Shown: positions 1 through 61,988 of the stretch, one piece after another
Layout: each line of letters starts with the position of its first letter
How positions within the stretch are numbered: the first letter of the stretch is position 1
IMG/VR virus record: IMGVR_UViG_3300034064_001073
Span: 15,874 to 79,873 of that record
DNA: 64,000 bases
DNA from: a virus
Reading direction: 5' to 3' (one strand)
Made by a program: the position numbers and the translations under genes
Notes under the pieces: generated by a model
Databases searched by the model: none
The model's input: only the letters and a program-made list of their open reading frames with translations
What the model was told of the DNA's origin: nothing

Positions 1-217
1 TTTCTTCCTGCGAACTTATTCTTTCAGGTGGAACTTCAAAATACAGATCATTAATCCAAAAGGCATGATTGAACTTATCACCATACTCTTGGTATCCAGT
101 ATTTAGCAAAGCATCGCTAACTGTTTCTCCATCAACATTTTCATCTAAGTAATTCTTAGCAGCATAAGAGTCTATTCTAGCTCTTCCACCACCAGCGTTA
201 TATCTATTATCAGCCAT
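1..217 (-). CDS. Partial CDS running off the left edge; probable tail/baseplate protein
   Basis: Manual translation MADNRYNAGG...FWINDLYFEVPPERISSQEE is open to base 1. Its ATG overlaps the TAA of the upstream gene (TAATG coupling at 215-219). Confidence 0.7.
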   Translation of the reverse strand, partial: MADNRYNAGGGRARIDSYAAKNYLDENVDGETVSDALLNTGYQEYGDKFNHAFWINDLYFEVPPERISSQEE

Positions 218-3200
218 TATAGTTGCCTCTCCAAATCCGAAGGGATATTGTAATTGTGATTAATTTTTACGCCAACTTGTGCACCTGGAATTATTCCCTG
301 AATAGATCTTGCATATTCAACAGGATTAGTTTTATCAACAATCATTCCTCTGTTAGATATTCTTACAGCCGCGTTATTCAAATAAGATTTAGAAGCAATA
401 GAGTTAGGAGAACTCATAGCGCCAGACATCTCAGCAGAGCCGGCACTTCTTGCCATTTCTTCATCTTGGGTTTGATTATAATTCGAGTAGTTATCACTAA
501 GAAGATTTCCACTATTGATAAGTTTCATATCTGCATTAGTTGGGGTCATCATCATTCTACCAGGTGGCGGTGGTGGGACATCTACTAATGGTTCGTCGTC
601 GTATCCTGAGTTAAACAAAGCATAGGCTCCTGCTGTTACAGCTGCACCAACCATACCTGCTCTCGCAAATTTATTAGCAAAAAGAGACTTAGCAGATTCC
701 TTGTTTTCTTTAAGCTCTTTCTGGGCTAACTGTTTTGCTACTGAGTTTTTACCTCTGCCAGCTGCTTTTGCTTTTTCTGTTGCATTTAAACGTGCGAGAT
801 CTTCTGCTCCAAAGCTAGAAGCATTAGCGCCAGTTAATGCGTCTTTAAACTCAGTGACTTTTTTCTTAAACTCTTGACGCTTTGCTTCTGGTAATGCAGA
901 CATAGCAAAATCAATAAGCATATCGCTTCTGCCAGAGTCAAGTTGATGTAAAGCAAACTCAGAGTCTGCACTACCTGATAGGTAAGAATTCAATATATCT
1001 CCTGCTGTTGTCTTTTCTGATTTCTTACCACCGCCAGCTAGAATAGAAGCTCTTGCTAATGAGAACGAACCTAACGTGGCATCGCTGGTTTCATCAATCT
1101 TGTCTGCATCTCTAAATCCAAAATCTTTCAAAAGACTCTTATACTCAGCTAAACCTTTTGTTAAATCTTCATTTTCCAACGCAGAATGGAAACGACTGTA
1201 TAGAAGTTTTCTAGGTGACATAGCCATATGCTTGAAACCAACAGCTTTCTGCTCTAGAGCTTGCAAGAAGTTTGACATCTCTTCTGACGAGCCTCGATCA
1301 ATGCCACCTGTGCTTCTCATAACATAGTTTATTTTATGTAGTGCTCTAGCTGTATTTGAAATAATACCGACATCTTCTTGTCCAACTTGTCTCATGAAAG
1401 CGGTTTGTTTTCTAGTTAACTTGACGCTACCACCAGTAAGTAACTTCTGTAGACTTTCATCAATTGCTTTTTCGTTTGCCATACTTCTCATATCATAGTT
1501 CTTTTGTCTTTGATATTGAGTTGAAAGATTTGGCGCGCTAATTAAATCTGAGATTCCCTCCCAGTAATCTTTAATGTTCTTACCACTTCTATTTCTATTA
1601 CCTGCACCTACAGCCATAACAGCAGCTGTGTCTCCGTCAAAGTCAGATGAAGTTTTACCAGATATAAAAGCACCAATTCTTTTCCAGATTTCCTGACCAT
1701 CTATGTCGACTTTCTCACCTAGAATATTAGCTGTATATCCTCCAGTCTTGTCTCTTCGAGGATCGTAATACCCAGCCATCGTAGAAACTGACTCTACGCT
1801 AATCTGAGGATTTTGCCAACCCATAACAGCGTATTTCTTTCCTTCTTCTAAGACTCCTCGTTTCATTTTCTTTAAATAGTTTTTCTCACTAGCAGAAGCA
1901 CCTCTCATCATTTCGTCAAAGTGGCCTTCAATAACTCTTTTACTCATACCTATTCCATAGCCTTGAGTTTCCTTTGCTACTTTATCATCTAAGTTTGCAA
2001 TGACCATGCCATACTCAGCACCACGTAGTCTTCCTTCAAAGGGGGCGTTAAAGGCTTCCATGCCTTTTCTCGCCCCAACATCCATCAACTTTCTACGTAG
2101 GTCTAGAAAGGCCTTCTTATCCACGTCTGCAATGTTTGTTTCAACTGTATTTAATACTTCAGTTATCATTTCTTGCAAGTCTGTGTCTTCTACATTTCTA
2201 CCAGCTCTGCTATCTCTTAGAGATAACTTCTTAACATCATCAGCAGATGGTATGTAAATATGGCCGCCTTCATGCTTTAAGAATCCGCCTTTAGTTTTAA
2301 TCCTGTTAAAAGCTGTTCTTCGTGCAGGTTCAGCTTCTTGTTTTGTAAAATCCAAAACGCGGTCTTGTTTTACTATTTCTCTATTTGAGTTCTTTGCAAA
2401 GCTAGCTAACTGAGATACATAACTAGGATCAAAAGTTTGTATTCTTTGTTGTATTGTTTCCCATACTTTTTTCATATGTCCATGTCTTTCGTTTTGCGAA
2501 TCCATCAATTGATAAAAGATATGGTCAATAAAACGACGTTCCATTCTTGCATCATTACCAGGTGTTATTGATGAAGAATCTGCAACTCCATGCAAAGATA
2601 AATTGAATACCATTTTTGAGTTTTTAATCCCAGACTGAACAGAGGATACGAAATCTTTATCTATACCTAAGTCAACAAGAGCTTGAACTCCTTCATTCGA
2701 ATTTAACATTGTTTCAAATGTACTTCCCTGCTCAAAGCCAAATACATTACCAAGTAACTGTTCACGTTCAGCCATTAGACTTGGATCTTCTATGAAAGCA
2801 TCCTCTGCCCTTTTCAAGAAACCAATCAATGCGTTAGTATCTTCCATTGAGTAGCTTTCGCCCATTCCCTTTTTCATACCCGCATGAAATGCTTTATAGC
2901 CAGCTTCCATTGTAGCTGTATCCCCGCCTGCAACTGAGTACATAGCATCGCTAGTTATATCTCCTGCGTAATTTCTAATATCACGTAAACCTAGTAACGG
3001 ATTACCAGAAGCGTCAAACTTGTTAAGAAGAAATCCTATTGCGGATTCTTGCTGAGTTCTAACATTTCTAATGTTGTCTCCCTTTATAAAGTTACGTCCT
3101 TCTCCAATGAAGGTTGTATGAGGCAAAGTTCTTGCTTCTGCGGTAGAGCCAGCAAAACTAGGATCCACTGCCGCAAAAGCCCCAGCAATTGCAGATGCAT

Positions 3201-6200
3201 TTCTTGTTCCAAGTATTTCATTAGCTTTCCCTGTTCTAACAGAGTCTCGCATTGAGCTCCAGGCACTATGAGTTGCATCAGAATCATATCCAGGAAGTTG
3301 ATCTTTGAAATCTGCAAGCTCTTCTTTTATCTGCTTCAAAGCAGCTATATGTGCATCTCTCTGTGGCTTTAGATCTGTCTGAGCAGCAACTGTTCCAAAC
3401 TGTTTAACAGTCTCTTCTTCAGCTTTTTTGCCAGCAATTGCTTTATATGCAATTGTTTTTCCTTTTCCAATCATTCTATTTAATTGTCTAAGTCTATCTG
3501 CATTTGCAAGTTTCTCTTCTTCAAAAACTTCCCTCTCTTTTAGGCGCGGCATAAGAGATTTATTTCTCTCTATCCTAGGAATACCTGGTCCCCCTAAAGA
3601 CATTCCAAAAGGTGAAACTTTGGCATCATTCTCCATTGCCATAGTCCAGCCGCCTACGCCACCTTGCTCAAGCAAAGTAAAAGGATTCTTACCAGAGAAA
3701 AAAGATTGTAGTCCTTTTCTTTGAGAACCACTAATACCTAGTAATTCTTCCACCATAGCAGAACTACCACCAGACGCTCCTAAATATTTATTTATAGTTT
3801 TTTTAATAACTTGCTCTGAGAATGCTCCAGGCCCATTATATGATGACGTAAGACTTTTTTGTAAATTAGGTCTTTTACCTTGCATCCAACTAGGGGCGTT
3901 TGCTTGTTTACCCTTTGTCTTCATTAAGGCTGAGCGAAATGAACTTTCAGCATCACCTAGACTTCCTAGGCCTCTTCTCTCAAATTCCTCTTGAAGACCT
4001 TTAACTTTCTTTTGTTGTCTGCTAAGTCTACTTGAAATGCTATTTTTAAGCATTTCTTTGCCATCTGGAATGCCTCCAAAATAACGATACATATTAGTAA
4101 AAACATCTCTATCTTGCTCTGGTAAAGATTTTGTACCTGCCATATACTTAATAGTATCTTGATTTCTTTCCCAGAACTTTGCTTCTTCTTCTAAGTTGAA
4201 AAGAGCTTGGACTTCTCCAATTGCTCTTGCTTGGAAATCTTCATTCTTTACTCTTGGAGGTTTTTGTTTTCTACTTTTTAATAGCTGATCTCTTTCAGCC
4301 ATTAAATCAAATAATGAAACAGATCCAGTTTCTGTTCCTTTACCAAAGCTTGGTCTAGTTGGAAAAACAGCATCAAGCAATTCAGATTCTGGGACTGTAT
4401 ATCTTTCTCTCTGGGACCTTAAACCAGCCTCAAGATCTGCTGTGCTTTTTTTATTCTTATTGACTCTTTTTGTCATAGAAGGACCTTTAGGTCCAGTTGG
4501 GAAAATCTCAGGCAGTCCCTCTAACAATTCCCTTTCTTGATCAAGCGGAACTCTCTCACCTAGGGATGTTTTATAATTTTCATAAGCTTTCTCAAGAGCT
4601 CCACCCCTCAAGTTCCCCATAATTTTTCGCTCTTCGCCTCTAGTAAACTTTCTTCGTTCCCCTACTATTTTTTTCTGAGCAGCAGCCGCTTTCTTTTTGT
4701 CTGTTAACTGATCCAAAGCTTTCTTTAGCGCATCAACTTCTGGAGCACGTCTTTGCACTTCTTGATCATAAAGAGTATTTCTATTAGTTTTTGCTAATTG
4801 TTTTGCATTAGTAAAGAATTCATCTTTCTGTGCTTTTTCAAAATCTTTAACTGATTGATACTCGTCATTGGTTAATTGTTCATCAAATAAAGAACTTTCA
4901 GTGCTAGTCGTAGCACCAAAGGTCTTAGTACCTTCACCAAAGCCGCTTACTCTGCCAATGCTAAATGTATAGTCATCAGTTCCGGGAATGACATCTAAAA
5001 TAGCAAGTCTTCCTTGACCAGGAACATCTACAGTAACGTCTGTAAGGTTGTCTCCTTCGACACTCTTACCAAGCCAATCACCTTGATCTAAGAAGATTGG
5101 GTTATCTTGTAACTCTTGTCTTATAGCAGCTTGTCTGGCCGCTGCATCTCCTGTTCCTGCTTTCTCTGCAATGTCAATAATGCCTTTGAATTTCTCGTTA
5201 TACTGAAATGGTTGACGAGTTGCAGGTGCACCCTTGGTTGATTTATCAATTGTAAAATGTCTTCCAGGATGTACAACTTCTTCACCTTCACTCGCGCCAA
5301 CTCTAATTCTTGTACCTTCAGGAACTGCCTGTGGATTTTCTTTCATAGATCTTTTAGTAGTTAGCCAACTGCCATGTACAAAACCTATCATGCCAGATTT
5401 TTCCATATCAGCAAAAGCACCTGATCCTCTAAACGCATAGAGATCACCTAACGTAGCGCGCATGTGCTTGAGTGCTCTCTGTGAGCCTCTATTCTGTACG
5501 TTATATGCGCTAATAATATGTCTACCAGGTCGACGTCCTATATCATTTGTAGAATAAAATTGACCAGTATCAGGATTAACTTCTCCTAGAGCTGCTCTTA
5601 CATAGTCTGGTGTTTGGGTATTGATAACTTGCCCACTCGGACCTCTTTGCACTGTTCTATAGTTAAAGATATCTTTCTTAGTTTGGTTAGGACTAGTGAG
5701 TGGTTCAATTACGTAACCATGCCCCTCTGCTTGTCTTTGGAACTCATCAAACTCTCCAACTCTTGAAGAATCATCTGGGCTGAATTCATCACTCAACTGA
5801 AGATCCTCATCCATAGGGTTCATAGTTCGAACAACTTTCATCTGAGCCGCTTTAAGAGACAAGGCTCTAGACGGAGTTCTTACAGGATCTATGTACTGTA
5901 GGATTTTATATTGATCATCAGCGTCAACATCTTTGCCACCAAACAAAGACGAACTAAGACGCCTGCCACTTTGAAGACTCTTATCAATCATTCCCATGAT
6001 TGCGCCGCCTTCACGCCCATACTTACCGTTCTTGTAAACATCTCTGCCAAATAAATACTCAAGCCCAGTCATAACTTCACTGGTTTTGTCTTTATTGATT
6101 TGCATCACTCTGCCAGTTGGACTGTACATAACCGAACCAGCAGCATCTCTATGGTAAATCTCAGCGCCTGTTGAAGCATCTTTATAATGTGACAGTTCTT

Positions 6201-7209
6201 GGATTGGCATCATAATGCTCTCAGCGTTTTCTCCGCTACCAACTCTGTACTGAGCATATCTAAATTTTTTACTAGCACTGTCCCCAATCTTCTGATCAAT
6301 CTCTACAATGTTTGACCTATTGTAGGTCATATCAACGCCTCTTCTACCTACTCGCTTTTCAAAGTTTTTTATTCGTTGAGCTTCTTCTTCCGTTAGATCA
6401 GAATCTGAAAGAAATTTAACATTGGATAGAGTGTTGTTTCCTGTTCCAAAATTAAGTAAACCTCTTGTTCCAGTTGCAGTCATTGCTCTGTTACCATGTA
6501 ATCTTTTTGAGAAAACATCAGCCATACCATCTACTCCGCCATACAAACTACTGAATGTATTAAGAAGAGGATTTAAAGCACGTCTTGCACCCTTAACATC
6601 CATGGGACCAAAGCTAGACCCCTGCAATTTGGCAAGTAAACTTTGATAGGTTTTCTGTTTATGAGTTCCTTGAAACACTCCTGAGAATCTTTTATTTTGC
6701 ATAATGTCAAGAAGCGTAAGTCTTGTAGCCTCAGCTTGTTGTCCATAGAATGAATTAGGATCTGCCGCAAAATTAAAATTGTTTACATTAAGAGGCCCAT
6801 TAACAATGGGAATTCCTCCTGGAACTCCTTGGGCACCCATAGGAGTACTTGTTACCATCTGATTGGCTACAACAAGACCGCCACCCTTTAGTCTCTTTCC
6901 TTCAAACTTATTTTTTTGCTGACTCCATAAGTACTGAAGTTGCTGAGCATTCATTGCATTTTCAATTGCAAACTGAAGACTTTTATTACTATCAGGTCGC
7001 ATATTATTTGCTTTATACTGATTACTTAATGTCTCAAAGAAAGTTCCATTCTCATACTCGCCTAATGTATTTCCGATATATGAATCGGTAGTAGTGCCAG
7101 TTAGCATTTGCTTAACTGCACTAAGTGTTAAATCGCTGCCTTTTGCTTTTCCAAAAGCTAAAGCGCCTAACCCTATGCTTAGTAAGTTAAAAATCTTATC
7201 GCTAATCAT
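217..7209 (-). CDS. 2330-aa putative virion-associated two-barrel (DPBB) DNA-dependent RNA polymerase
   Basis: SSDFDGDTAAV (DFDGD at 1630-1644) is preceded about 58 aa earlier by VMGWQNPQIS, the spacing of the beta-prime R.P...DxDGD barrel. GEGTKTFG is a possible beta-like lysine motif. The gene lies in the tail module directly after the tape-measure-like gene. Confidence 0.7.
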   Translation of the reverse strand: MISDKIFNLLSIGLGALAFGKAKGSDLTLSAVKQMLTGTTTDSYIGNTLGEYENGTFFETLSNQYKANNMRPDSNKSLQFAIENAMNAQQLQYLWSQQKNKFEGKRLKGGGLVVANQMVTSTPMGAQGVPGGIPIVNGPLNVNNFNFAADPNSFYGQQAEATRLTLLDIMQNKRFSGVFQGTHKQKTYQSLLAKLQGSSFGPMDVKGARRALNPLLNTFSSLYGGVDGMADVFSKRLHGNRAMTATGTRGLLNFGTGNNTLSNVKFLSDSDLTEEEAQRIKNFEKRVGRRGVDMTYNRSNIVEIDQKIGDSASKKFRYAQYRVGSGENAESIMMPIQELSHYKDASTGAEIYHRDAAGSVMYSPTGRVMQINKDKTSEVMTGLEYLFGRDVYKNGKYGREGGAIMGMIDKSLQSGRRLSSSLFGGKDVDADDQYKILQYIDPVRTPSRALSLKAAQMKVVRTMNPMDEDLQLSDEFSPDDSSRVGEFDEFQRQAEGHGYVIEPLTSPNQTKKDIFNYRTVQRGPSGQVINTQTPDYVRAALGEVNPDTGQFYSTNDIGRRPGRHIISAYNVQNRGSQRALKHMRATLGDLYAFRGSGAFADMEKSGMIGFVHGSWLTTKRSMKENPQAVPEGTRIRVGASEGEEVVHPGRHFTIDKSTKGAPATRQPFQYNEKFKGIIDIAEKAGTGDAAARQAAIRQELQDNPIFLDQGDWLGKSVEGDNLTDVTVDVPGQGRLAILDVIPGTDDYTFSIGRVSGFGEGTKTFGATTSTESSLFDEQLTNDEYQSVKDFEKAQKDEFFTNAKQLAKTNRNTLYDQEVQRRAPEVDALKKALDQLTDKKKAAAAQKKIVGERRKFTRGEERKIMGNLRGGALEKAYENYKTSLGERVPLDQERELLEGLPEIFPTGPKGPSMTKRVNKNKKSTADLEAGLRSQRERYTVPESELLDAVFPTRPSFGKGTETGSVSLFDLMAERDQLLKSRKQKPPRVKNEDFQARAIGEVQALFNLEEEAKFWERNQDTIKYMAGTKSLPEQDRDVFTNMYRYFGGIPDGKEMLKNSISSRLSRQQKKVKGLQEEFERRGLGSLGDAESSFRSALMKTKGKQANAPSWMQGKRPNLQKSLTSSYNGPGAFSEQVIKKTINKYLGASGGSSAMVEELLGISGSQRKGLQSFFSGKNPFTLLEQGGVGGWTMAMENDAKVSPFGMSLGGPGIPRIERNKSLMPRLKEREVFEEEKLANADRLRQLNRMIGKGKTIAYKAIAGKKAEEETVKQFGTVAAQTDLKPQRDAHIAALKQIKEELADFKDQLPGYDSDATHSAWSSMRDSVRTGKANEILGTRNASAIAGAFAAVDPSFAGSTAEARTLPHTTFIGEGRNFIKGDNIRNVRTQQESAIGFLLNKFDASGNPLLGLRDIRNYAGDITSDAMYSVAGGDTATMEAGYKAFHAGMKKGMGESYSMEDTNALIGFLKRAEDAFIEDPSLMAEREQLLGNVFGFEQGSTFETMLNSNEGVQALVDLGIDKDFVSSVQSGIKNSKMVFNLSLHGVADSSSITPGNDARMERRFIDHIFYQLMDSQNERHGHMKKVWETIQQRIQTFDPSYVSQLASFAKNSNREIVKQDRVLDFTKQEAEPARRTAFNRIKTKGGFLKHEGGHIYIPSADDVKKLSLRDSRAGRNVEDTDLQEMITEVLNTVETNIADVDKKAFLDLRRKLMDVGARKGMEAFNAPFEGRLRGAEYGMVIANLDDKVAKETQGYGIGMSKRVIEGHFDEMMRGASASEKNYLKKMKRGVLEEGKKYAVMGWQNPQISVESVSTMAGYYDPRRDKTGGYTANILGEKVDIDGQEIWKRIGAFISGKTSSDFDGDTAAVMAVGAGNRNRSGKNIKDYWEGISDLISAPNLSTQYQRQKNYDMRSMANEKAIDESLQKLLTGGSVKLTRKQTAFMRQVGQEDVGIISNTARALHKINYVMRSTGGIDRGSSEEMSNFLQALEQKAVGFKHMAMSPRKLLYSRFHSALENEDLTKGLAEYKSLLKDFGFRDADKIDETSDATLGSFSLARASILAGGGKKSEKTTAGDILNSYLSGSADSEFALHQLDSGRSDMLIDFAMSALPEAKRQEFKKKVTEFKDALTGANASSFGAEDLARLNATEKAKAAGRGKNSVAKQLAQKELKENKESAKSLFANKFARAGMVGAAVTAGAYALFNSGYDDEPLVDVPPPPPGRMMMTPTNADMKLINSGNLLSDNYSNYNQTQDEEMARSAGSAEMSGAMSSPNSIASKSYLNNAAVRISNRGMIVDKTNPVEYARSIQGIIPGAQVGVKINHNYNIPSDLERQL

Positions 7210-7217
7210 AGTAAAAC

Positions 7218-10200
7218 TTACATAAACGGATTAAGAGTATTGTACTCATTAAATGTTAGGTCAACAAAATCTTGGTTCCTATTAGGCCCTTGAATATTAT
7301 AACTATTTACACCATACCCACTGTACATCTTAGCAGCATTAGCCATTCCATTCAGTCCATTTCTAAAACTTAAGTTATTCAGATCTTGCATAGCTTTTTC
7401 ATCTACATATGGTTTTCTAGGCATATACGAGGCCCGGCTTGGATATATTCCAAAGTCATGATAGTCCATACCTTCAGACTGAATATATTTAAGCTTAACA
7501 TCTTCTAGGTCTACTGCTGGATTAAATCCAATCCAGTCTACAGCTGGCATTGATCTATGATTAAAGAATTGAGATACTTCTTGTAACTTTGCGCTTTCTA
7601 CCATTTGAGGATCTGCTACATCAAATCCTTCTTTTTGTTTCTTTATAATAAGATCAGCTGCATAGTCCATACCATAAGTGGACATAGGCCCAGCCGTTGC
7701 TGCACGATTAATAGCCTCTAAGTCTTGGTTAAGATAAAAGCCTTCCATTAGTCTTGCCTTGTAATCTGGTAAAGCATCTATGATTTCGCCTTGGCGACCA
7801 GGATTCATCTCTCTCGCAAATCCTGCGGCAAACATAGATTCTCTTCCACCTAAAACATTTGCTAATCTATCTTCAGATACATAACCTGTTCCACCAACAT
7901 AAGTATCTTGTGCTATATTCTGATATTGATTTGCTAGTTGGCCATTACCTTCCATGCTTGCCGCTTGAGACAAAGATGAATATTTAACATATTTAAGCTT
8001 GTCAAAGTACTCTTCAGTCTGTCTTTTCTCTCTTAGTCCTGGGGACTCAAAATTAAAACCAAGCCAATTATGTAACGCTGACTTTACAGCAGGAGCTATC
8101 CAGTCTGCAACTGGACTATCCCATCCTTTCATTTCGGTACCGTAAAGTTCCCTTGATTCATACTCTTCTAGAGCATCTCGAAATGGCAATAGCTTATTTA
8201 CAGGAGACATACCAAACATTCCAATATGCTCTATTGGCTGTGCAACTCTATTTGCAATATGTGTTGTAGCTTCCCATGCTCTGCCAAACATTCTTCCAAT
8301 AGGATTAGTCATTGCATAGCTAGAGATTTGAGAATCATCTCTAGCGAAGTCACCTTCTTCTCTTATATCTTGGTTAACATTAAAACCATTATTACTTACA
8401 GCGCCCCTAATAATACCTGAAGAGTCAACTGCTTGACCAATACTAGCAGGAACATCTACTGATACTCCTTGTCCAACTTGAATCTTACTAGAGAACGCAG
8501 ATTCATTTTTGCCTTTTAATTTCGCAGCTTGTTTGATTGATAAGTTGTAATCGCTAATTAAAGCATCAACATCATTAGATATGCCAGCCACACCGAATCT
8601 ACCACCGTATCCTTCAAGAGTAAAGCTCATAGTCGAAGCATCAACTGATGAAACTCTTCCACTTATGTTGTCGTAAGTGCTTGGCTTGAATTGATACGTG
8701 TCGTATTCCATGTCATTCTTTTTGTTTTCTATCATTTGTTTATGGCGATAGAAGAATTTTCTTTCTTCCTGCGTCATATCTCCGCCAGCCTTCATTAGTT
8801 CGGCTTGCCTTAAGTATCCTTTGTACTGAGGAGATTGAGGAGCAACATCTCCAAGAATATTAAGTTTGTGAAGCAAAGGGTAATCTTCTGGATTGACACC
8901 TTTCAATTCTTTATGCAAAGCTACATATCCCTTGCCTGGCATTCTATACTCACCTTCGCCATATCTGGTGCTAGTATATTGGTTGCCAAACTTAAAACTA
9001 TCTGGCATCCAACTTGGCATAGCATTTTGAATAGGATTGTATTGCTTTAAATCATCTTTGTGGAGGAATCGTCTAATAGGCTCTGATACAAATGGAACAC
9101 CAAGGAATGAACCACCACCCTGAAGATCATGGAATCTACTTGCCATATCCATATTACGAGAGAAGGACTCTAGCTCTTGTCTTTGATCAGCAAATCCAGG
9201 AGTGCCAGTTAAGTAATTCTTAGCAGTCTTCGCATAGAAACCAACTAGTCCTCCAAGTGAAGTTGTTTGCTCCCAGAAGTCTCCAAGTACTCTTCCTGGA
9301 GAATACGGCGAATAGGGTGCAGGCAAACCAAGTCCACCAATCTGTAAGTCTGGAATCTCATCAAGTCCAGTAGATCTTTCTAGTAGCTTTACATTTCCTT
9401 CTTCATCACTTCGAGCCCACTCACCTACATGCATAAGTCTTGGCTTTTTGATAAGATCTGCAAAAGGTTGAATTAGCGGATATATAAATGGAACTTGATC
9501 AAACGCAGCACCTGTTATTGGCGCTGGCCTAGTCCAGTAGTTTTCTCTCTCAAGCTTGTATGTGAAATTCTTTAATACCATTTCCGTCAATTGACCGTGA
9601 CCGCCAGATGCCCCAGCCTGAGTTGCACCTGAACTTAAACGAGCTGTCAATGTAGGGCGGTAATAAAGAATATCAGTACCCTCATAACCTGTTTGACCCA
9701 TTTCCCATTTTTGACCACGCTTAACAGCTTCTAGTCTTTTGCCTTGATTAAGCTCTCTAAGCTCAGCTGGGCGCTCTAGGGTACCCATACTGCCAGTTGC
9801 TGTGTACCATGCTGCTGCTGCTACAGTAGAAGCATACAGGATACTTCTCATTCTAGGCGCTACTCTTATTGCTTCTCTTAATCTACCAAATGCACCTTTC
9901 TCACTTGCAAAAATTCTCTCTTTTGCTTCAGCGTAAGTATGCTCAGTAATGTGTTCTGCTATTTCATCAAAGTTTGATTCATCTGCAACTTTGCCAATTG
10001 GGTTATTAAGTAATCCATATTCATTTTTTCTTTCAAGAGAGGCAATATAAGAATTTACATTACGCTCTACAACATCAGCCTGCTTAGATGATAGACCTCC
10101 TGTGTCGCCTCTTGCTATTGTAATAGCAGTTTCAAGTCTAGATCTTGCTGCGACTTTTTCTCTATCTGAAAGACCAGAGTAAGCATCCGCATGTTGTTTA

Positions 10201-12095
10201 TTTAGAATTAGTACACGTGCAGATTGCTCTCTGACTTCTTGCGCCATTTCAGCAAGAGTAATATTATTTCTATCTTTAAACTTTGCTCTTAGGAATTTTG
10301 CCCGCTCATCTTGCTCAACTAAAACGTCACTCGATAGACCAGGAATCTTTAAAGTACTAGAAAGTCTTACTCCTCTGGTGGCTGTGACATACCCCGCACC
10401 AGCTAGGAAGCCAATACCCAAAGATGAAACTACACCAGTAGAGCCAGGCATCATTTCATTAACTGCACGTCTCCATGAGTTAACGCCAAGCGCTTCTCCT
10501 GTATAGCTTCTAATTTCATTTCCTCTTGCTGCAAGGTTTGCAAAGCCAGGTATTGGACCTGCTGCAAACGGACCAACTCCAGCCATACCAAGAACACCAA
10601 GAGCTGCTCCAATTCCCGCTCCAACAAGAGTACGTTTTTGAGAATTGCTTGTTATCTCCATGCCCATTTTTTTAAAGACATCAGAAAAGCCAAGATCATC
10701 TGATATCATTTCAGGTATTTTCTTTCCAAGGTAAGCACCTAGTACAGTTAATCCGACTGTCTGTAAACCTCCAGAAATGCCCCCTGTAATAGGGTCGGCA
10801 TTCATCATGTTCCATCCTAGCTGATTGACCGTAGCCATGGTTAATGCTACCTTTGCGGCCATGCCAGCATACCTCATAAGCATTGCAGCACCATGGCCAT
10901 GGTCCAATCTTGGAGCTAGATTGTTTCTAGCTAAGAAGTTATAAATTTTCTTTTTTGGAGATGGAGATATATACTCAAGAAAATCTCCAGCTTGTCCATA
11001 TAATTCAGAAAACAATCTTGAAGTTCTCTGCAAGGCCATAGAAGCATATGCCTCAGTTAATAACGCAGTTGTTGCATACTTCTTTAAGTTCATTCTTTTG
11101 CCAGGAGAAAGCATACCGAGACTTCCTGTAGCTATGCCCTTCCTTGTTAAAGTTTGCATTCTACCCATCATACGGGTTAACTCTGGATCCATATTCTTTT
11201 CTGCCAGTAATATAAATCCTTCTCTTCCTCCGATGCCTTCTGCAAAGGTTGCACCGGTCTTCCTATCTTTTAAACCTAGGCTAGGTTCTATAATTCCAAG
11301 CAAAGCTTCAGTGAACAAACCTTTATCAACTAGACGTGCTGTCTTCTTGTTAAGCTTCTTCTTAGGCCCAGCCATATTGGTGACTTCTCCGTACATGTTA
11401 AGTGTACCAGAGAAAACGTCTCCATTCTCAAAGATTAGGTAATCTAGAAGATTTAATTTTCTTCGACTAATACCTAATTGCTTTGAATATAAATCCAATG
11501 TTCTAGATCTATTAGTTGCTCCTAAGGAATTCATACTAATGTTTAAAACAGTTTTACCTTGTCTTTTTGTCGTATAAGACAAGACATCGCTCATGTAAGT
11601 AGCTCTAGCAAATAACTTAACAACATTATCAAATATTGGTAAATTCAATCCACTTTGTTCTACTTTCTTAATTCCGGCATACCAAAAACTTTGAGGATCA
11701 TCACTAGATCTAATGTTCATTAATTCTTGAGTTGCACGAAAAGTAACAGCCCTTAAAGTCTTCATTGCTTCTTTGCCAGTCTTTAAATTAAAGACATCGC
11801 TTACTTTATTAACATGGCTAAAACTTCCAGACAATTGCCACTTCTGGAACTTTGTACTCTTTGAGAGTTCACCTGCTCCTCGAATAGCACTTGGACCCAT
11901 ATAAAAAACAAGACCACCTGCAGCCGTTTTCATTGCAAGATTCAATGCTTGATCAGCTGCAGTAACTTCTTCTCCTGCTGCACCAGAACTCTCAGCCCAT
12001 GTTTGCTTATCCTCGGAATACTGAGATCTCTCAACCGACTGGGTAAGATCATGGTATTCTGCAAGTTGTTCTGCAATTGCATTAGGAAGTGGCAT
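7218..12095 (-). CDS. 1625-aa tape-measure-like / ejected tail protein
   Basis: Follows the tube and chaperone genes, is large, and has several Gly/Ala-rich hydrophobic helices. Confidence 0.55.
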   Translation of the reverse strand: MPLPNAIAEQLAEYHDLTQSVERSQYSEDKQTWAESSGAAGEEVTAADQALNLAMKTAAGGLVFYMGPSAIRGAGELSKSTKFQKWQLSGSFSHVNKVSDVFNLKTGKEAMKTLRAVTFRATQELMNIRSSDDPQSFWYAGIKKVEQSGLNLPIFDNVVKLFARATYMSDVLSYTTKRQGKTVLNISMNSLGATNRSRTLDLYSKQLGISRRKLNLLDYLIFENGDVFSGTLNMYGEVTNMAGPKKKLNKKTARLVDKGLFTEALLGIIEPSLGLKDRKTGATFAEGIGGREGFILLAEKNMDPELTRMMGRMQTLTRKGIATGSLGMLSPGKRMNLKKYATTALLTEAYASMALQRTSRLFSELYGQAGDFLEYISPSPKKKIYNFLARNNLAPRLDHGHGAAMLMRYAGMAAKVALTMATVNQLGWNMMNADPITGGISGGLQTVGLTVLGAYLGKKIPEMISDDLGFSDVFKKMGMEITSNSQKRTLVGAGIGAALGVLGMAGVGPFAAGPIPGFANLAARGNEIRSYTGEALGVNSWRRAVNEMMPGSTGVVSSLGIGFLAGAGYVTATRGVRLSSTLKIPGLSSDVLVEQDERAKFLRAKFKDRNNITLAEMAQEVREQSARVLILNKQHADAYSGLSDREKVAARSRLETAITIARGDTGGLSSKQADVVERNVNSYIASLERKNEYGLLNNPIGKVADESNFDEIAEHITEHTYAEAKERIFASEKGAFGRLREAIRVAPRMRSILYASTVAAAAWYTATGSMGTLERPAELRELNQGKRLEAVKRGQKWEMGQTGYEGTDILYYRPTLTARLSSGATQAGASGGHGQLTEMVLKNFTYKLERENYWTRPAPITGAAFDQVPFIYPLIQPFADLIKKPRLMHVGEWARSDEEGNVKLLERSTGLDEIPDLQIGGLGLPAPYSPYSPGRVLGDFWEQTTSLGGLVGFYAKTAKNYLTGTPGFADQRQELESFSRNMDMASRFHDLQGGGSFLGVPFVSEPIRRFLHKDDLKQYNPIQNAMPSWMPDSFKFGNQYTSTRYGEGEYRMPGKGYVALHKELKGVNPEDYPLLHKLNILGDVAPQSPQYKGYLRQAELMKAGGDMTQEERKFFYRHKQMIENKKNDMEYDTYQFKPSTYDNISGRVSSVDASTMSFTLEGYGGRFGVAGISNDVDALISDYNLSIKQAAKLKGKNESAFSSKIQVGQGVSVDVPASIGQAVDSSGIIRGAVSNNGFNVNQDIREEGDFARDDSQISSYAMTNPIGRMFGRAWEATTHIANRVAQPIEHIGMFGMSPVNKLLPFRDALEEYESRELYGTEMKGWDSPVADWIAPAVKSALHNWLGFNFESPGLREKRQTEEYFDKLKYVKYSSLSQAASMEGNGQLANQYQNIAQDTYVGGTGYVSEDRLANVLGGRESMFAAGFAREMNPGRQGEIIDALPDYKARLMEGFYLNQDLEAINRAATAGPMSTYGMDYAADLIIKKQKEGFDVADPQMVESAKLQEVSQFFNHRSMPAVDWIGFNPAVDLEDVKLKYIQSEGMDYHDFGIYPSRASYMPRKPYVDEKAMQDLNNLSFRNGLNGMANAAKMYSGYGVNSYNIQGPNRNQDFVDLTFNEYNTLNPFM

Positions 12096-12146
12096 AGTAA
12101 CTTACTATAAAAAGAGTATATTCTTATTTTCTCTTAAACACCTATC

Positions 12147-13208
12147 CTATGGTTTAGTTTTAAACCTCTTTTTGAAATTAGGCTTTTGTTTTTCTACTTT
12201 TGCCGCTTCTTCTCGCTCTTTTTCTTGTTTCTCAATTATAAGTTCATATCCAGCAGGCATAAGTCCCATCTCCATTTGCATTGCGAGAGCTTCTGCGTCT
12301 GTCATACCTGGACCATTAAAGTCTCCTGACTCAAATCCTCCAAGTTGATTCTGTCTATTAATTGTAATGCCAGGAACATTAACAGCAACTCCATTAGATA
12401 TAGCAACACTGTCCTTCGGAGGAATATAATCTGTCTTTGAAATCTTCTCTTTTACTTTATTCCTATTCTCGTCTTCCTTGCTTATTTTGTTTTGTTGCTC
12501 TCTGATAATATTCTCTTTTCTCCTTTTCTCAAGATCTTGCTTCTCTTGTTGTTCTCTTACTTTAAGCAATTCTTTCAAGAAGCTTCCTTCTTCAGAATCA
12601 GGAGGTACATTTGTTTTAACTGGTTCCTTAGCAGAAGCTACCTCTTTATTCATCTCTTCTTGGTCTTCTGGGTTATATATTTCGAGTGGCTGCTTAAGCA
12701 TTCCATTCTCAAGTAGGTAACGCTCAGCACTAGCAAAAAGACTAGAGATCTTATCAAATGGCAACTTATCTAGCATCTCAAATGTGTATGCTTTAAAGAC
12801 TAAACAAATAACAGTATACATCTGATACTCAACGTTAGTTCTTGCAATGCTTCTATACATATTTAATCTATATGTAAAAGAACCAATATCAATTCTTCCG
12901 TTCTTATCAGGAATAATGCCAGAATCGCTAACATACATAATCAAGTCAGAGATAGTATCAACTACGCCAGCAGGTAGAAGATCTATCTCCATGTCTGTCC
13001 AACTCGGATCTCTAAGTGTATAGTCTCTAAAGATTTTCATCTTCAAATCCCATGGAGGAATGCTTTGGACCCGTTCAGCAAAACGAATCCTCTTGTACTC
13101 TCCCCATGGGATACGAGTATAGAACACAGTCAACTTACTAGATAAGTTGTAAGGAATATCTATAACATATAAGGGGATATCTTTGTAGTTAAAGATATCT
13201 ATATCCAT
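12147..13208 (-). CDS. Putative tail assembly chaperone-like protein
   Basis: Lies between a chaperone gene and the tape-measure-like gene. Its LLPAGVVDTISDLIMYVS segment parallels DLPAGLPDLLVNMISRLS in the neighbour. Confidence 0.5.
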   Translation of the reverse strand: MDIDIFNYKDIPLYVIDIPYNLSSKLTVFYTRIPWGEYKRIRFAERVQSIPPWDLKMKIFRDYTLRDPSWTDMEIDLLPAGVVDTISDLIMYVSDSGIIPDKNGRIDIGSFTYRLNMYRSIARTNVEYQMYTVICLVFKAYTFEMLDKLPFDKISSLFASAERYLLENGMLKQPLEIYNPEDQEEMNKEVASAKEPVKTNVPPDSEEGSFLKELLKVREQQEKQDLEKRRKENIIREQQNKISKEDENRNKVKEKISKTDYIPPKDSVAISNGVAVNVPGITINRQNQLGGFESGDFNGPGMTDAEALAMQMEMGLMPAGYELIIEKQEKEREEAAKVEKQKPNFKKRFKTKP

Positions 13209-13225
13209 TTTTTATCTTATTATGT

Positions 13226-13741
13226 TTAGAGTTCTTTGCTCAGAGAGAAAGCTAGCTCAACAGGAATAAACGCGCTTAGACGGCTAATCATGTTAACAAG
13301 TAGGTCTGGAAGACCAGCTGGAAGATCTGAGATTGCTTCTTCTGAGAGAAGAGGAAACACGCAACCAGCCTCAAGGATTTCCTTGTTAAGCTTCTCTGCG
13401 TCTTGGCCAGCAATTTCTCTAATCATTTTCATCTCACGAACTCTGAGAGGGCGAACAACAAACCACTTGCCATCCTCATGAGGATAGACAATGACTGTGC
13501 CATGTCGCTCTTTCATCTTTGTAAGGTATGACTTTGAGCATCCAAGCTTTTCAAGCGAACTATAAAGAAGTTCCTTTTCGTCAGCTGGCTCAGAATCTGG
13601 AGAATTATCTGGAAGGTCTTCTTCAGTTATTGAAGCCGAAATTTCTGCTTCCTTCTTTTCTTTTTCCTTTCTTGCCTTGTCTAGCTTTGCTGCTAGTTTA
13701 AGATCACTGTCATCTTGTAAAGTATCATCTAGGTCGACCAT
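13226..13741 (-). CDS. Tail assembly chaperone
   Basis: 171 aa, downstream of the tube genes. FVVRPLRVREMK...CVFP...LPAGLPDLL...S pattern is typical of myophage chaperones. Confidence 0.6.
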   Translation of the reverse strand: MVDLDDTLQDDSDLKLAAKLDKARKEKEKKEAEISASITEEDLPDNSPDSEPADEKELLYSSLEKLGCSKSYLTKMKERHGTVIVYPHEDGKWFVVRPLRVREMKMIREIAGQDAEKLNKEILEAGCVFPLLSEEAISDLPAGLPDLLVNMISRLSAFIPVELAFSLSKEL

Positions 13742-13749
13742 AAAAACTC

Positions 13750-14631
13750 CTAAGGACTTGCTTCAGTTTCGGGTTTAATTAACGTAAATTTATCTCTGGC
13801 TATGAACTTATAAACCTCCATAACAGGTTGGTCATCCGCCATAACTTGGTGACTTTCACCAATAAAATGAACTCCTTTTAATATTGTTGAAAAGGAATTA
13901 CTATAATCTAAGATACCAGTTTGTTTTCCGTTTAATTTAGGATCACCATATGTAATAACAATATCTAGCCCAGGCCAAGTTGCTGCACTAGAATTATTAG
14001 AAAATTGGTCTGGTCTTTTATATATTGAATTCTTATCTTTTAGATCTATAGAAGTTTGTAGATTTCTAGGATCTACTTGGGTACTCGGACCATATTGAAA
14101 AGAGCCATTTGCTGTATCAATGCTTACTCCATTTAATTGACGTTCACTTGGAGAAAATGCTGATCTATAGTCTTTTAACGCACTAGGATTATTAAATAAA
14201 TCATTTAATAGCTGATCATAGTTATCTTCTTGTCTTGCCCCTGATCCATATGTTGCATTACTCATAATCGTGCGAATCGCCTCTGCCGCCGCCCCAGGTG
14301 CTTCTTCATCATTCTGAGTAAAAGCATTTCTGCCTATAGGTCTACTTATTACGTCTTTCTTGTATTCAGCTGATAAATTGCTTGGGTAGTTATGGTAGTC
14401 TCTAATTATCTTAGAAAGATAATTTGCATGTTGGTATGTCAAATATAATTGCCCAATAACAATAACTTGTCCTGTTGCAATTGCATCAAACACCATACTA
14501 TTGTATCCATATATAGGTCTTTTATTCTGTGACAGTTCATAGGAAATGCCAAATGCATTACCAATTAAACTTTCACCAATAGTAAGTGAAATATTAGATC
14601 CAGTATATATACTTGCAACTTGTCTTGACAT
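13750..14631 (-). CDS. Tail tube-like protein (paralog 3)
   Basis: YTGSNI...ISYELSQNKRPIYGY...G.L and terminal FIARD align by eye with the tube gene at 15628. Confidence 0.65.
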   Translation of the reverse strand: MSRQVASIYTGSNISLTIGESLIGNAFGISYELSQNKRPIYGYNSMVFDAIATGQVIVIGQLYLTYQHANYLSKIIRDYHNYPSNLSAEYKKDVISRPIGRNAFTQNDEEAPGAAAEAIRTIMSNATYGSGARQEDNYDQLLNDLFNNPSALKDYRSAFSPSERQLNGVSIDTANGSFQYGPSTQVDPRNLQTSIDLKDKNSIYKRPDQFSNNSSAATWPGLDIVITYGDPKLNGKQTGILDYSNSFSTILKGVHFIGESHQVMADDQPVMEVYKFIARDKFTLIKPETEASP

Positions 14632-14645
14632 TAAATCTCCAGAGT

Positions 14646-15422
14646 TTAGTTCATCGTAGTAGGAGCTTGACTACCAGCTGGAGCCTGAAGTGGTGGCGCT
14701 AACTGCTCATCTTCAGTCTCTGCCTCTTGTGGTCCATTGAACTGACTTCGCCATGCTTTTGTTTCGTCCATATTTACTGCATGGAAATACTCAATGTCTC
14801 TTGCGATGTACTGATATTGTACTTCAGTATATATATCTTCTACTGACATTGTTTGAGAATCATGCACAATATCAACACCATATAGAATAATTTTCCCGAC
14901 ATCATTGTCTTCATTCAAAAACAAAATAATAATGTCAAAAGGGGGTAAGTCTGATGGCTTAGTTATTTCTCCGAATAAACTAGTATCCCATGAGAAGTCC
15001 CATTGCTTTTTTAACTTTTCTTTATTTATCTCACTGGTTTTTTCTGGGATTACATACTCTACATCCCCAGAACTATAGGTAAGAAAGCCGCCTTTGTCAC
15101 TTACGCTAGTAATGCCAGTTGCAAACTTATTCTCATTCAAAACATGCAAATGCATTTGATTAAAGATTAAGGTTCCAGCAATAGTTCTTCCACCCCTTGC
15201 AATACCAATTGGGTTTTTAAACCCTAATGCCTTAACAGGAGTCTTTGAATTGTATGTTGAGATACTGATGGTCTGAAGAGTTCCAATCTTGAAAACCTTC
15301 TCTTCATTCAATTGCTCTGTACCTCTCATATACTGAGGTAGGCGTATTATTGCGTTTATATCGCAACCAGAGAAGCCCATTCTTCCGCCTCTGGAGTATC
15401 CTGCACTGAATGATCCCGACAT
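14646..15422 (-). CDS. Tail tube-like protein (paralog 2)
   Basis: FSGCDI...NPIGIARGGRTIAGTLIF...DLPPFDI...YIARD, clearly homologous to 15628-16266. Confidence 0.75.
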   Translation of the reverse strand: MSGSFSAGYSRGGRMGFSGCDINAIIRLPQYMRGTEQLNEEKVFKIGTLQTISISTYNSKTPVKALGFKNPIGIARGGRTIAGTLIFNQMHLHVLNENKFATGITSVSDKGGFLTYSSGDVEYVIPEKTSEINKEKLKKQWDFSWDTSLFGEITKPSDLPPFDIIILFLNEDNDVGKIILYGVDIVHDSQTMSVEDIYTEVQYQYIARDIEYFHAVNMDETKAWRSQFNGPQEAETEDEQLAPPLQAPAGSQAPTTMN

Positions 15423-15423
15423 G

Positions 15424-15552
15424 TTACCTTTTTAAGTGAGACTCAAATTTATTTAGTATGTCTGTAAAATAGACATAAGCAAGAAACGCCACAACAAGTA
15501 CGACTATTGCTGCAGATATTTTTATTCTATCAGTTAAAGATTGTTTGTCCAT
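15424..15552 (-). CDS. 42-aa single-pass membrane protein not in the ORF track
   Basis: MDKQSLTDRIKISAAIVVLVVAFLAYVYFTDILNKFESHLKR, with GGAGG 7 nt upstream of the ATG; fills the intergenic gap. Confidence 0.6.
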   Translation of the reverse strand: MDKQSLTDRIKISAAIVVLVVAFLAYVYFTDILNKFESHLKR

Positions 15553-15570
15553 AAGCAATCCTCCATAAAT

Positions 15571-15601
15571 AAAAAACCCACGTATATATTATATACGTGG
15601 G
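15571..15601 (-). terminator. Intrinsic terminator after the tail tube gene
   Basis: CCCACGTATAT/ATATACGTGGG inverted repeat followed by a T6 run on the minus strand. Confidence 0.8.
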
Positions 15602-15627
15602 CTTCTTAGGAGGTTTAACTAATACTC

Positions 15628-16266
15628 TTAGGCGATTGTAATGCTACCACCGTCGCGAGTAATAGTACCGATGTTGGAGATACCCGAACCTTCGTCTCTG
15701 CTAGCAGTCCAACGAGTAACCGCACGGGCGAGATACGTTGTCTGCATGTCAGCTTGACGATCTTCAATACCCATGCCCCAACCTTCGTTCATGAGCTCAC
15801 ACCCGTGAATGACGCAACGAGCTTGGATACCAAACTCATTACAGGCTGCAACAGTAATATCAAATGGAGGAATCTGGTCCGCATAGAAAGCTCTGCTGAC
15901 AGCACCAAGTGCCTCAGGGTTAACATCCGCAGTGATTGCTCCGATTGCCGCATCGTCCTGCTTAAGATCAGACGGAGAGATTTCATACTTCTTCTTTACG
16001 AAGTTACCAAGGTTGCCCGTTGAGAACTGCTCAAGAATAGCATGTGTATCAAACTGAATGAAGATAAGTGAACCAGCAATACCACGCTTGCCACGTGAGA
16101 AACCACGAGGGTTGGCCTCACCTAGCACGTAGATAGGAGCCTTTTCACGCTGAATAGCATAAGAGACTGCCATTAGGTTACCGACTTCCTTGGCGCCAAA
16201 GACAGCTTTGATGTCTGCGCCAGAGAAGCTATTAAATGATCTTGTTGTAAAATCTGCTGCGGCCAT
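15628..16266 (-). CDS. Major tail tube protein
   Basis: Directly after the sheath, with a strong AAGGAG SD and a downstream terminator. Motifs SFSGADI...RGFSRGKRGIAGSLIF...DQIPPFDI. Confidence 0.8.
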   Translation of the reverse strand: MAAADFTTRSFNSFSGADIKAVFGAKEVGNLMAVSYAIQREKAPIYVLGEANPRGFSRGKRGIAGSLIFIQFDTHAILEQFSTGNLGNFVKKKYEISPSDLKQDDAAIGAITADVNPEALGAVSRAFYADQIPPFDITVAACNEFGIQARCVIHGCELMNEGWGMGIEDRQADMQTTYLARAVTRWTASRDEGSGISNIGTITRDGGSITIA

Positions 16267-16284
16267 TTTTGTTCTCCTTTAGAA

Positions 16285-50417: not shown

Positions 50418-50950
50418 GAATTCCTCTTCGTTACTATTTATCTCTAGTAATTAAACTTTCCTATAAGAGCTGATACCATAAATTTTGCTGTATAGGGACA
50501 AAAGAAAAGCCTTATATATTATTTAAGGAAAGCTCTATATATATTTTAGGAAAAAAGTCTAAAGAAAAGCTAGGGGAAAAGGGGGTATAGGTCTAGGATA
50601 AAAGTCCTTTATCTCTGTAACTTATATTTATTTTTATATTTTTATGGAAAAGAGTGGGTACTTATACTCGTGGGCCCCTATACTTACCCTACCCCTATCC
50701 CGTTTTAGCCCACCCCCTTTAAAGACTATGTACCAGGGGATGAGGGTCTTTCCAACTCTCACCAATTGCTAGCATCCCGCTAGCTTTGGACATTACCCCA
50801 CAAGGGTAGTAAGGAACGCCATGTGCACGCTCGCACAAGCCCCCACCCCCACCACACACACCTCCATCACACACACTACCATGAATAACATTCATAACAA
50901 CAATAACAACACCATCACGAATAACGATAACGTCAACATCAACGAAGAGA
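50418..50950. other. Divergent strand-switch region with a composition boundary
   Basis: Gene orientation flips here. An AT-rich tract is followed by C-runs and a G-free C/A tract (50840-50882), and GC and codon usage change abruptly. Confidence 0.7.
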
Positions 50951-50955
50951 AGAAA

Positions 50956-51762
50956 ATGAAGATCGACCGCGAAGATAAGTTCATGTTCTCTATCATTATG
51001 GTACTTGTTACGTTCATTACGACACTGTTCATCTATTCGGTGAGTATCACTCGTGAACATGCGGCGGCTATGTATGAGAAAGAAGTCCGTCAGGCTGTCT
51101 GGGTAGCCGATAGCGACTATGCAGAGGTTGTGATGCAGTTGGAAGAGTACCTTGACGAAAAGTTTCATGCAGAAAACAATATCCACCATGGTATTGGCCC
51201 TGTTGCAACCAAAGGCGATAAGGGCCCTCTTGAGGACACTTGGGACTGTACCGCTTGGAAGTGGAAGGGTAAAGTCTATACGGCAGAACACTGTGTACGT
51301 GAAAACTACGAGGAAACTATGGGTGACGTAGTTGTATCGGCTGATAAGTACCCCCATGCCATCAAAGAGGATCTATATGACATCGGTATTGAATGTAGCA
51401 CGGATCTGCGCTGGTGGGGTGCGAATACGGACATGTGGGGCTACATTCCTTTTGAGCAGGCATTTAATCACTATAAGCAAGTAGTGAATGGTGCAACTGT
51501 TACTAATCAGCGCTTCATCTGTGCTGCTAGCATCAGCCTTGAGATTGCTCCTGTGGTTGGCGACTCTGGTGGCCCGCTTATGGCTGGTGATGAAGTCATT
51601 GGCTTCGTCAGCTATGGTGAGAGCCCGAAGTGGGCTGACAGTGATATGCTTGAGAACTTTGACATCAAATATAAGGACGCCCTATATGGTGACCTTACAT
51701 ATTGCTGGGGTGTACTGGATAGAAGCCAGGATACGATCAGCAAGTCGGAACAGTCCAACTAA
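50956..51762 (+). CDS. Membrane-anchored trypsin-like serine protease
   Basis: YTAEHCV (His), YDIGI (Asp) and GDSGGPL (Ser) triad motifs, plus an N-terminal TM helix. Start is uncertain (ORF is open from 50821). Confidence 0.85.
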   Translation: MKIDREDKFMFSIIMVLVTFITTLFIYSVSITREHAAAMYEKEVRQAVWVADSDYAEVVMQLEEYLDEKFHAENNIHHGIGPVATKGDKGPLEDTWDCTAWKWKGKVYTAEHCVRENYEETMGDVVVSADKYPHAIKEDLYDIGIECSTDLRWWGANTDMWGYIPFEQAFNHYKQVVNGATVTNQRFICAASISLEIAPVVGDSGGPLMAGDEVIGFVSYGESPKWADSDMLENFDIKYKDALYGDLTYCWGVLDRSQDTISKSEQSN

Positions 51763-58292: not shown

Positions 58293-58490
58293 TCTCTTTG
58301 CGACTAGAATGGTAAGCAACAAGCAGGCCATTTTTTTCTTCTTTCCTAAAATAGTCCAGATACTCCGCTGCCTTTGTTCGTTCCTCCGCGAAGGCCTATA
58401 TGTACCTTGTAATGCCTGCACCCGCCTGCATAGCCTCCTTCGTCGTCCAGATCTAGTGAGCACTTTTGCTCCTCTTGTACGGTGTCCCCC

Positions 58491-58673: not shown

Positions 58674-58685
58674 CGCATCCTCTCA

Positions 58686-61959: not shown

Positions 61960-61988
61960 ATTACTTTACCCGTCCTAAGGAGGACACA

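Follow-up and report, generated by a model that had tools for sequence, protein, structure and literature searches.

We examined a 64,000-nucleotide stretch of viral DNA, hereafter the window, which comprises bases 15,874-79,873 of the 79.9-kb IMG/VR record IMGVR_UViG_3300034064_001073 (rated 46% complete). An open reading frame at window 217..7209 on the minus strand is one unbroken frame of 2,330 codons, and we found that its product, P0001 (2,330 amino acids (aa)), is probably a very divergent single-chain RNA polymerase (RNAP) of the two-barrel, cellular type, which is encoded among tail genes and would be delivered with the virion. Our results support a new, sequence-orphan family of single-chain two-barrel RNAPs in the tail module of contractile-tailed phages, probably virion-delivered. 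Delivery of a two-barrel RNAP with the virion has been shown for crAss-like phages, for one Thermus siphovirus and, in the form of multisubunit enzymes, for phiKZ-like jumbo phages. If our reading is true, the P0001 family extends this strategy to sheath-encoding phages of ~175 kb from metagenomes.

An AlphaFold2 model of aa 1340-2110 (the C module), computed from a 16-row alignment, had a predicted local distance difference test score (pLDDT) of 78.9 and a predicted template modelling score (pTM) of 0.65. When this model was compared with the PDB by Foldseek, the top 50 matches consisted entirely of RNAP largest subunits, QDE-1 and phage RNAPs. Alignment of Foldseek matches with VIA-align gave Z 10.7 for QDE-1 (348 aligned residues, 7.5 Å), 10.1 for maize RDR2, 9.8 and 9.1 for the phage non-virion RNAPs P74 gp62 and P32 gp64, and 9.1 for Escherichia coli beta' (366 residues, 5.6 Å). 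Furthermore, in an unbiased VIA search of 48,161 representative chains, ranks 1-12 were all two-barrel RNAPs, with Z 10.6 for QDE-1, 9.9 for RDR2, 8.6 for archaeal A' and 8.5 for Pol II; gp96 of phage P23-45 (8h2n_A) scored 6.4. An original prediction made for this gene without database searches, that it encodes a putative RNA polymerase, is thus in agreement with both structural searches, and the beta'-like core of P0001 is very likely to be homologous to RNAPs.

After the polymerases, the next ranks were isolated domains of the double-psi beta-barrel (DPBB) type, namely a formylmethanofuran dehydrogenase subunit, VCP/CDC48 N domains and designed DPBBs, which superposed at 2.3-2.7 Å on model residues 390-529 (aa 1729-1868). 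Among them, 7dbo_B had Z 6.6 and 2.3 Å over 84 residues, and 8rja_J had Z 7.6. The motif DFDGD lies in the loop preceding the last strand of this predicted barrel, DPBB-A, and the modelled P0001 carries on it the DxDxD loop that marks the metal site of two-barrel RNAPs. The original prediction, for which a DFDGD outside a DPBB would have been fatal, thus withstands this check in the model. A 34-residue helix at aa 1933-1966 and a helix-loop-helix at aa 1972-2012 follow, which in the model we take for a bridge helix and a trigger loop, respectively. Alignments to archaeal A', a subunit that terminates with the bridge helix, stopped at model residue 635, whereas those to beta' and Rpb1 continued to residue 751. 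The features of P0001 are listed here by window position.

217..7209, minus strand: whole P0001 gene; it begins 8 bp beyond where the 1,625-aa gene upstream stops, and at its other end it shares 1 nt with the start of the following gene.
6313..7209, minus strand: N-terminal region, aa 1-299; N-terminus conserved, Gly/Ala-rich and mildly hydrophobic.
5590..6312, minus strand: aa 300-540, with weak likeness to the lobe/protrusion of RNAP beta/Rpb2 (Z 3.9-4.5).
5281..5535, minus strand: aa 559-643, with conserved RRPxR, GSxRAL and SGAFxDM; candidate first half of the second barrel.
4942..5277, minus strand: aa 645-756, a small beta domain resembling the RNAP beta-flap/sandwich-barrel-hybrid fold (Z 3.5-3.8).
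4885..4941, minus strand: aa 757-775, EGxKx[EF]G[SA]TxS with invariant K762, directly past the flap-like domain.
3190..4842, minus strand: aa 790-1340, a poorly conserved linker rich in K, E, L, G and A.
880..3192, minus strand: aa 1340-2110, the beta'/QDE-1-like, putatively catalytic module modelled above.
1606..2025, minus strand: predicted DPBB-A, aa 1729-1868; superposed on 7dbo_B, 7dww_A, 7dvc_A and 8rja_J.
1807..1818, minus strand: WQNP, aa 1798-1801, at the place of the beta' R.P motif, with Gln for Arg.
1630..1644, minus strand: DFDGD, aa 1856-1860, candidate Mg-binding triad; three Asp invariant.
1312..1413, minus strand: aa 1933-1966, the helix read as bridge helix, with invariant GQ...G..S; alignments to archaeal A' stop here.
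1174..1296, minus strand: aa 1972-2012, the helix-loop-helix read as trigger loop, with invariant Q1987, F1992, K1993 and H1994.
1228-1260, minus strand: ALEQKAVGFKH, aa 1984-1994.
220..879, minus strand: C-terminal tail, aa 2111-2330, conserved; its last ~70 aa are well conserved.

The motifs named in the original prediction were all found where it had put them. WQNP lies 58 aa upstream of DFDGD, and ALEQKAVGFKH, expected as a helical segment downstream of it, is a helix in the model and occupies the trigger-loop position. The D.D.D pattern is present just twice in P0001, and the chance expectation for an exact DFDGD in 2,330 aa is ~0.002 by our estimate from the composition of P0001. To obtain relatives, metagenome proteins were searched by word-indexed and exhaustive hidden Markov model (HMM) methods. 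These searches recovered five related clusters with 43-88% identity over the region and, out of 1.84 billion proteins, nine further, more distant 50%-identity representatives. Relatives of P0001 are also carried by two viral contigs of 174-176 kb (L002 and L003) and by a distant 174-kb contig (L010/L011).

We judged conservation on an alignment of 16 sequences reaching down to 24% identity. Invariant in all 16 were Q1799, P1801, K1852, S1854, D1856, D1858 and D1860 around the metal motif, G1943/Q1944, G1948 and S1951 of the putative bridge helix, and the four trigger-loop residues listed above, whose pattern Q....FKH is comparable to beta' QLTMRTFH. The metal motif itself is DFDGD in 15 of the 16 and DFDHD in the remaining one, so that conservation of the motif, on which the original prediction had been made to depend, holds for its three Asp in every homologue found. 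The motifs of P0001 are not chance occurrences, because they are invariant across these sequences. The caveat that the usual Arg of the R.P motif is Gln also proved to be well placed: all 16 family members have Gln, where E. coli beta' has NRAPTLH, P23-45 gp96 FRNP, gp64 NRRP and phi14:2 gp66 YRIP. Judged from the alignment, this Gln is a family trait and not a lesion of a single copy. A second caveat was that the second beta-like Lys is not evident; a single invariant Lys (K762) stands in place of GDKxxxRHGxKG.

Next, we considered the second barrel, DPBB-B, which lies ahead of DPBB-A in the published single-chain enzymes. The N module (aa 300-800) folded alone had a pLDDT of 70, with two conserved stretches at low confidence. 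Most of its top 50 Foldseek matches were beta/Rpb2 (best E 0.04), and VIA placed model residues 1-240 on the beta lobe/protrusion and 346-457 on the beta-flap. The unbiased search returned beta at Z 3.9, a DUF2118 hybrid barrel and the isolated E. coli beta-flap at 3.8 each, NusG domain 2 at 3.6 and the Thermus beta-flap at 3.5. In these models, aa 300-800 weakly but consistently resemble a beta subunit (lobe/protrusion and flap). In beta, GDKxxxRHGxKG follows the flap, and P0001 has its K762 motif at that place. The pattern F.GEG[RK]N..KG.NI[RK]..R.QQ at the start of the C module resembles, by eye, beta DIVLNP...PSRMNIGQ, and the candidate basic residues of barrel B are the invariant K762 and [R/K]1372.

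A two-chain prediction was then made, in which aa 1340-2070 were paired with aa 540-800. The interface score ipSAE was 0.77 against 0.00 for the best control; in calibration, 58 of 80 solved complexes attained this mark, as did 2 of 110 mismatched pairs. At least 57% of the contacts were common to the runs, and the partner pLDDT was at least 57. Confident contacts joined aa 607-640 with aa 1341-1375, 1491-1495 and 1529-1542, and the three conserved segments in contact were exactly those with low confidence when each half was folded alone. The interface score may reflect likeness to solved beta-beta' complexes, and the two chains are parts of one polypeptide. The predicted interface fits a second barrel built from the two halves and interrupted by the linker, and we regard these models as suggestive of a DPBB-B in P0001. 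Between K762 and N1379 the spacing ranges from ~134 to 707 aa among homologues, a five-fold variation in linker length.

The gene lies in a late structural module, as had been predicted from its surroundings: sheath and tube genes come before P0001 and baseplate J after it. The minus-strand order is terminase, portal, capsid, a 1,013-aa sheath, three tube-like paralogues, two small genes, a 1,625-aa protein and P0001, continuing outside the window with proteins of 447, 809, 458 and 2,666 aa, small genes and baseplate J. There is no gap between the P0001 gene and its neighbours. L002 has the identical gene order, and the distant L011 preserves it in essence. In window 1-16,500, promoter- and terminator-like sites were no commoner than in shuffled sequence. 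A virion role is a natural inference for the product of a late structural-module gene, and by analogy with known virion enzymes it seems somewhat probable that P0001 is packaged and injected. Its C-terminal tail contains an Ala/Gly-rich hydrophobic stretch and a PPPPPG motif (aa 2184-2218, window 556-660), and our guess would be a virion-incorporation or membrane element.

These results can be combined into a working model. The beta'-like module (aa 1340-2110) would contribute DPBB-A (with the DFDGD metal site), the bridge helix and a trigger loop that has FKH at its end. The beta-like module (aa 300-790), with lobe, flap-like domain and K762, would build the second barrel together with aa 1364-1375 and 1529-1542, and the variable linker of 130-700 aa would be inserted inside that barrel. 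P0001 would be made with the tail genes, and so would probably be incorporated in the virion and enter the cell alongside the DNA. In the cell it may transcribe the earliest phage genes without recourse to the host enzyme, as has been shown for phi14:2 gp66 and P23-45 gp96. We consider it likely that P0001 is enzymatically active. In a bolder version, P0001 is a fused beta-beta' RNAP that has a flap-like insert and belongs to the cellular clade, not to the QDE-1/YonO clade; an extensible linker splits barrel B so that the unfolded chain can cross the contractile tail and refold in the cell, and the Gln gives an unusual substrate or template specificity. We regard this version as a long shot.

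Several findings weigh against the polymerase reading. The alignment under the models is shallow, the Foldseek E-values of the C module against the PDB are just 3e-3 to 2e-2, and a Z of ~10 is moderate for a 771-residue model. The matches of the N module are weak (Z at most 4.5), barrel B was not visible as a barrel in any model inspected, the two conserved basic residues expected of it are only candidates, and Gln stands in place of the R.P Arg. P0001 is also without a strong hydrophobic or transmembrane segment. At the sequence level, a Pfam scan of P0001 gave only sub-threshold noise (BscB_a-b and Spore_III_AB), PHROGs and NCBIfam gave no match, and the PDB gave none by phmmer and one chance enoyl-CoA hydratase match (E 1.9) by family profile. 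A tblastn search of 50,697 GenBank phage records with the whole of P0001 and with a 311-aa core found no match at E up to 10. Comparison of family profiles by hhalign with E. coli beta/beta', phi14:2 gp66, P23-45 gp96 and gp64, all as single sequences and gp96 as its first 1,250 aa, was not significant; the best E, 0.04, was off-motif, and gp66 DFDID was aligned to DFDGD at E 0.11. Two-barrel RNAP families are reported to share little past the DxDxD region, and the negatives for P0001 are in line with this. Because it has no detectable sequence similarity to a known polymerase, the P0001 family is annotated as hypothetical everywhere.

Could P0001 then be a structural or ejection protein that keeps a relic polymerase fold and makes no RNA? 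The replacement of the ribose-contacting Arg by Gln in all members, the tentative nature of the basic residues of barrel B and the absence of detectable sequence similarity to active polymerases would all suit a relic. A relic is not expected to keep catalytic residues, yet the three Asp, the motif of the putative bridge helix and the His of the putative trigger loop do not vary among sequences as distant as 24% identity, while the remainder of P0001 diverges; moreover, the active enzymes gp66, gp96 and gp64 are likewise without sequence similarity to cellular enzymes. We therefore consider a relic quite unlikely. Still less probable is an active two-barrel polymerase that is unpackaged or has another role, such as QDE-1-like RNA-dependent synthesis or priming. 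The RNA-dependent enzymes QDE-1 and RDR2 are the best structural matches, and Gln for a ribose-sensing Arg could alter the choice of substrate. Against this stand the Z gap of just 1-2 units between QDE-1 and beta'/Rpb1, the fact that QDE-1 is likewise the closest match of gp66, which is a DNA-dependent enzyme of the virion, and the timing: a polymerase made only with late tail genes would come too late for a non-virion function.

The position of the gene, downstream of sheath and tube-like genes and upstream of baseplate genes, raises the alternative that P0001 is the tail tape measure, or a part fused at its N-terminus, with the linker as ruler and the polymerase threaded in the tube. A long, variable and probably extended linker would suit this, and P23-45 gives a precedent: as stated in the original prediction, its virion RNAP is indeed fused to the tail tape protein (PMC10770324). 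The prediction had also called the neighbouring gene tape-measure-like. For the 1,625-aa neighbour this is doubtful, and the 2,666-aa protein is a better candidate. Three giant open reading frames (1,625, 2,330 and 2,666 aa) share the tape-measure slot, and only the 2,666-aa product (L004 2793-10793, minus strand, record bases outside the window) has several hydrophobic segments and a PHROG match, which is endolysin-annotated and covers aa 2244-2418; many tape measures share such features. It adjoins, upstream of them, the small genes and baseplate J, and we regard it as the best tape-measure candidate of the phage. By comparison, P0001 has no peptidase domain by Pfam to set beside its lack of a strong hydrophobic segment, most of it is predicted to be globular, and the five-fold variation of the linker in the family does not favour a ruler. 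We consider a tape-measure role unlikely, and a fusion of P0001 to a tape measure is not supported.

Some neighbouring genes were also characterized. P0002, the 1,625-aa protein (window 7218-12095, minus strand), precedes the polymerase gene in each relative examined (L002 and L011); it matches no family, contains a hydrophobic, Gly-rich stretch at aa 489-515 and may be an ejection or channel protein. Three paralogues of 212, 258 and 293 aa (window 13750-16266, minus strand) match phrog_9206, 'major head protein'. Because they directly follow the sheath gene, they are more likely to be tail-tube paralogues than a head protein. A 1,319-aa protein (window 45141-49100, minus strand), encoded upstream of the terminase in the same operon, has a staphylococcal-nuclease domain at aa 1103-1213.

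We then compared the putative polymerase with known systems. The gp96 protein of the Thermus siphovirus P23-45 is clamp-less, and its polymerase takes up the first 1,100 aa of a tape measure that has 5,002 aa in all and also contains membrane and metallopeptidase domains (PMC10770324; PDB 8H2M/8H2N). P0001 resembles it as a predicted single-chain two-barrel protein with an exact DFDGD, an x-N-P upstream of it (FRNP in gp96, WQNP in P0001), a gene in the tail module and a lack of sequence similarity to cellular RNAPs. P0001 differs in coming from a sheath-encoding phage, in its C-terminal catalytic module and in having no peptidase domain; its Z to gp96 is below the QDE-1 and beta' scores, and it falls outside the gp96 type. 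The gp66 protein of the Cellulophaga crAss-like phage phi14:2 (PDB 6VR4) is a protein of the virion, has ~2,200 aa and is built on a two-barrel core like that of QDE-1 (bioRxiv 10.1101/2020.03.07.982082). It shares with P0001 giant virion-protein neighbours and the order of metal motif, bridge helix and trigger loop, the latter two as modelled in P0001. Unlike P0001, gp66 belongs to the Crassvirales and has DFDID, with Ile/Val at the fourth position, so P0001 is not of the gp66 type.

Neurospora QDE-1 and plant RDR2 (PDB 2J7N, 7Y7P and 7W84), which have both barrels in one chain, are the best matches of the C module (Z 9.9-10.7), but they are eukaryotic RNA-silencing enzymes. Their clade is without a flap-like insert (PMC7824862), whereas the N module of P0001 weakly resembles beta with its flap. 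With the multisubunit beta/beta' enzymes, including those of phiKZ and AR9, P0001 shares the order of a beta-like part followed by a beta'-like part, the former with a weak likeness to the beta lobe and flap, and its C module can be aligned with beta'/Rpb1/A' over 330-380 residues (Z 8-9), starting at the N-terminal clamp core and reaching the trigger loop. It is set apart from multisubunit-type beta' by its single chain, by the lack of a Pfam match and by Gln for the Arg of NRxP (NRAPTLH in E. coli); furthermore, NADFDGD has become SSDFDGD, and GDKxxxRHGxKG is reduced to one invariant Lys. If P0001 is a polymerase, these substitutions and the proposed giant insertion in the second barrel would make it a very distant point in the divergence of the RNAP core, and one would have to ask how an enzyme of 260 kDa gets through a contractile tail. 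A Pfam or PHROG model could be started from the family alignment.

Related genomes were also searched for another polymerase, and viral structure models for matches to P0001. With a cut-off of E 10, PF00623 (RNA_pol_Rpb1_2) had no match in four related genomes, among them three complete ones, with 14 of 14 control genomes positive, which is in line with our reading of P0001; PF00940 (T7-like RNAP) had none in the three complete genomes either, a weak negative given that the control genomes were likewise silent. In BFVD, the best matches to the C module were uncharacterised phage proteins, an unnamed entry (1e-7) and one of Acinetobacter phage ME3 (8e-7), followed by Microcystis phage MaMV-DC (2.2e-4, the third-best viral match), crAss giant proteins and gp66 at rank 24 (E 2e-2). 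The family profile had no match in the genomes of ME3 and MaMV-DC. The ME3 genome is without a D[FY]DGD-coding site, and the source of its BFVD match was not located there. MaMV-DC is a cultured, sheath-encoding phage of 169 kb, and its sole DFDGD-coding site is in ORF82L (L018 11653-22335, minus strand), a 3,560-aa hypothetical protein encoded beside structural genes, to which the matching BFVD piece presumably belongs. Unlike the P0001 gene, ORF82L does not share a strand with the capsid and sheath genes, and it has no similarity to the family profile. We found no published function for ORF82L, and this giant open reading frame may give an experimental handle on a structurally similar protein.

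A separate region of the window was distinguished by its base composition. At ~50500-64000 there is an abrupt rise in GC and a switch of coding strand relative to the structural operon. The block has 52-55% GC, compared with 38-45% in the rest of the window, and encodes a 2,176-aa protein (51762-58292, plus strand). SLOG/DprA-like and HIRAN domains are present in the C-terminal part of this protein, and its N-terminal 1,600 aa matched neither a family nor a PDB sequence. The distant genome G003 encodes a homologue of 51% identity within a 3,766-aa open frame. In G001 and G002 only aa ~165-311 have a counterpart, though the P0001 homologues there are closer. Ten exact copies of CTCCTTCGTCG, where 0.46 would be expected, were found on one strand (plus) at 58,435-62,442. 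In G003 there are 16 forward copies of CTCCTNCGTCG, 12 of which lie together at 127-135 kb, shortly downstream of where the 2,176-aa protein has its homologue, and there are no copies of the motif in G001 and G002. We considered CTCCTTCGTCG as a promoter for P0001 and rejected it, as the motif co-occurs with the 2,176-aa protein and not with P0001 homologues. Because the motif and the protein are both in G003 and absent from G001 and G002, while P0001 homologues are in all three, CTCCTTCGTCG goes with the 2,176-aa protein and the high-GC block. The GC rise, the strand change and the patchy distribution in relatives suggest that ~50500-64000 is a horizontally exchanged module.

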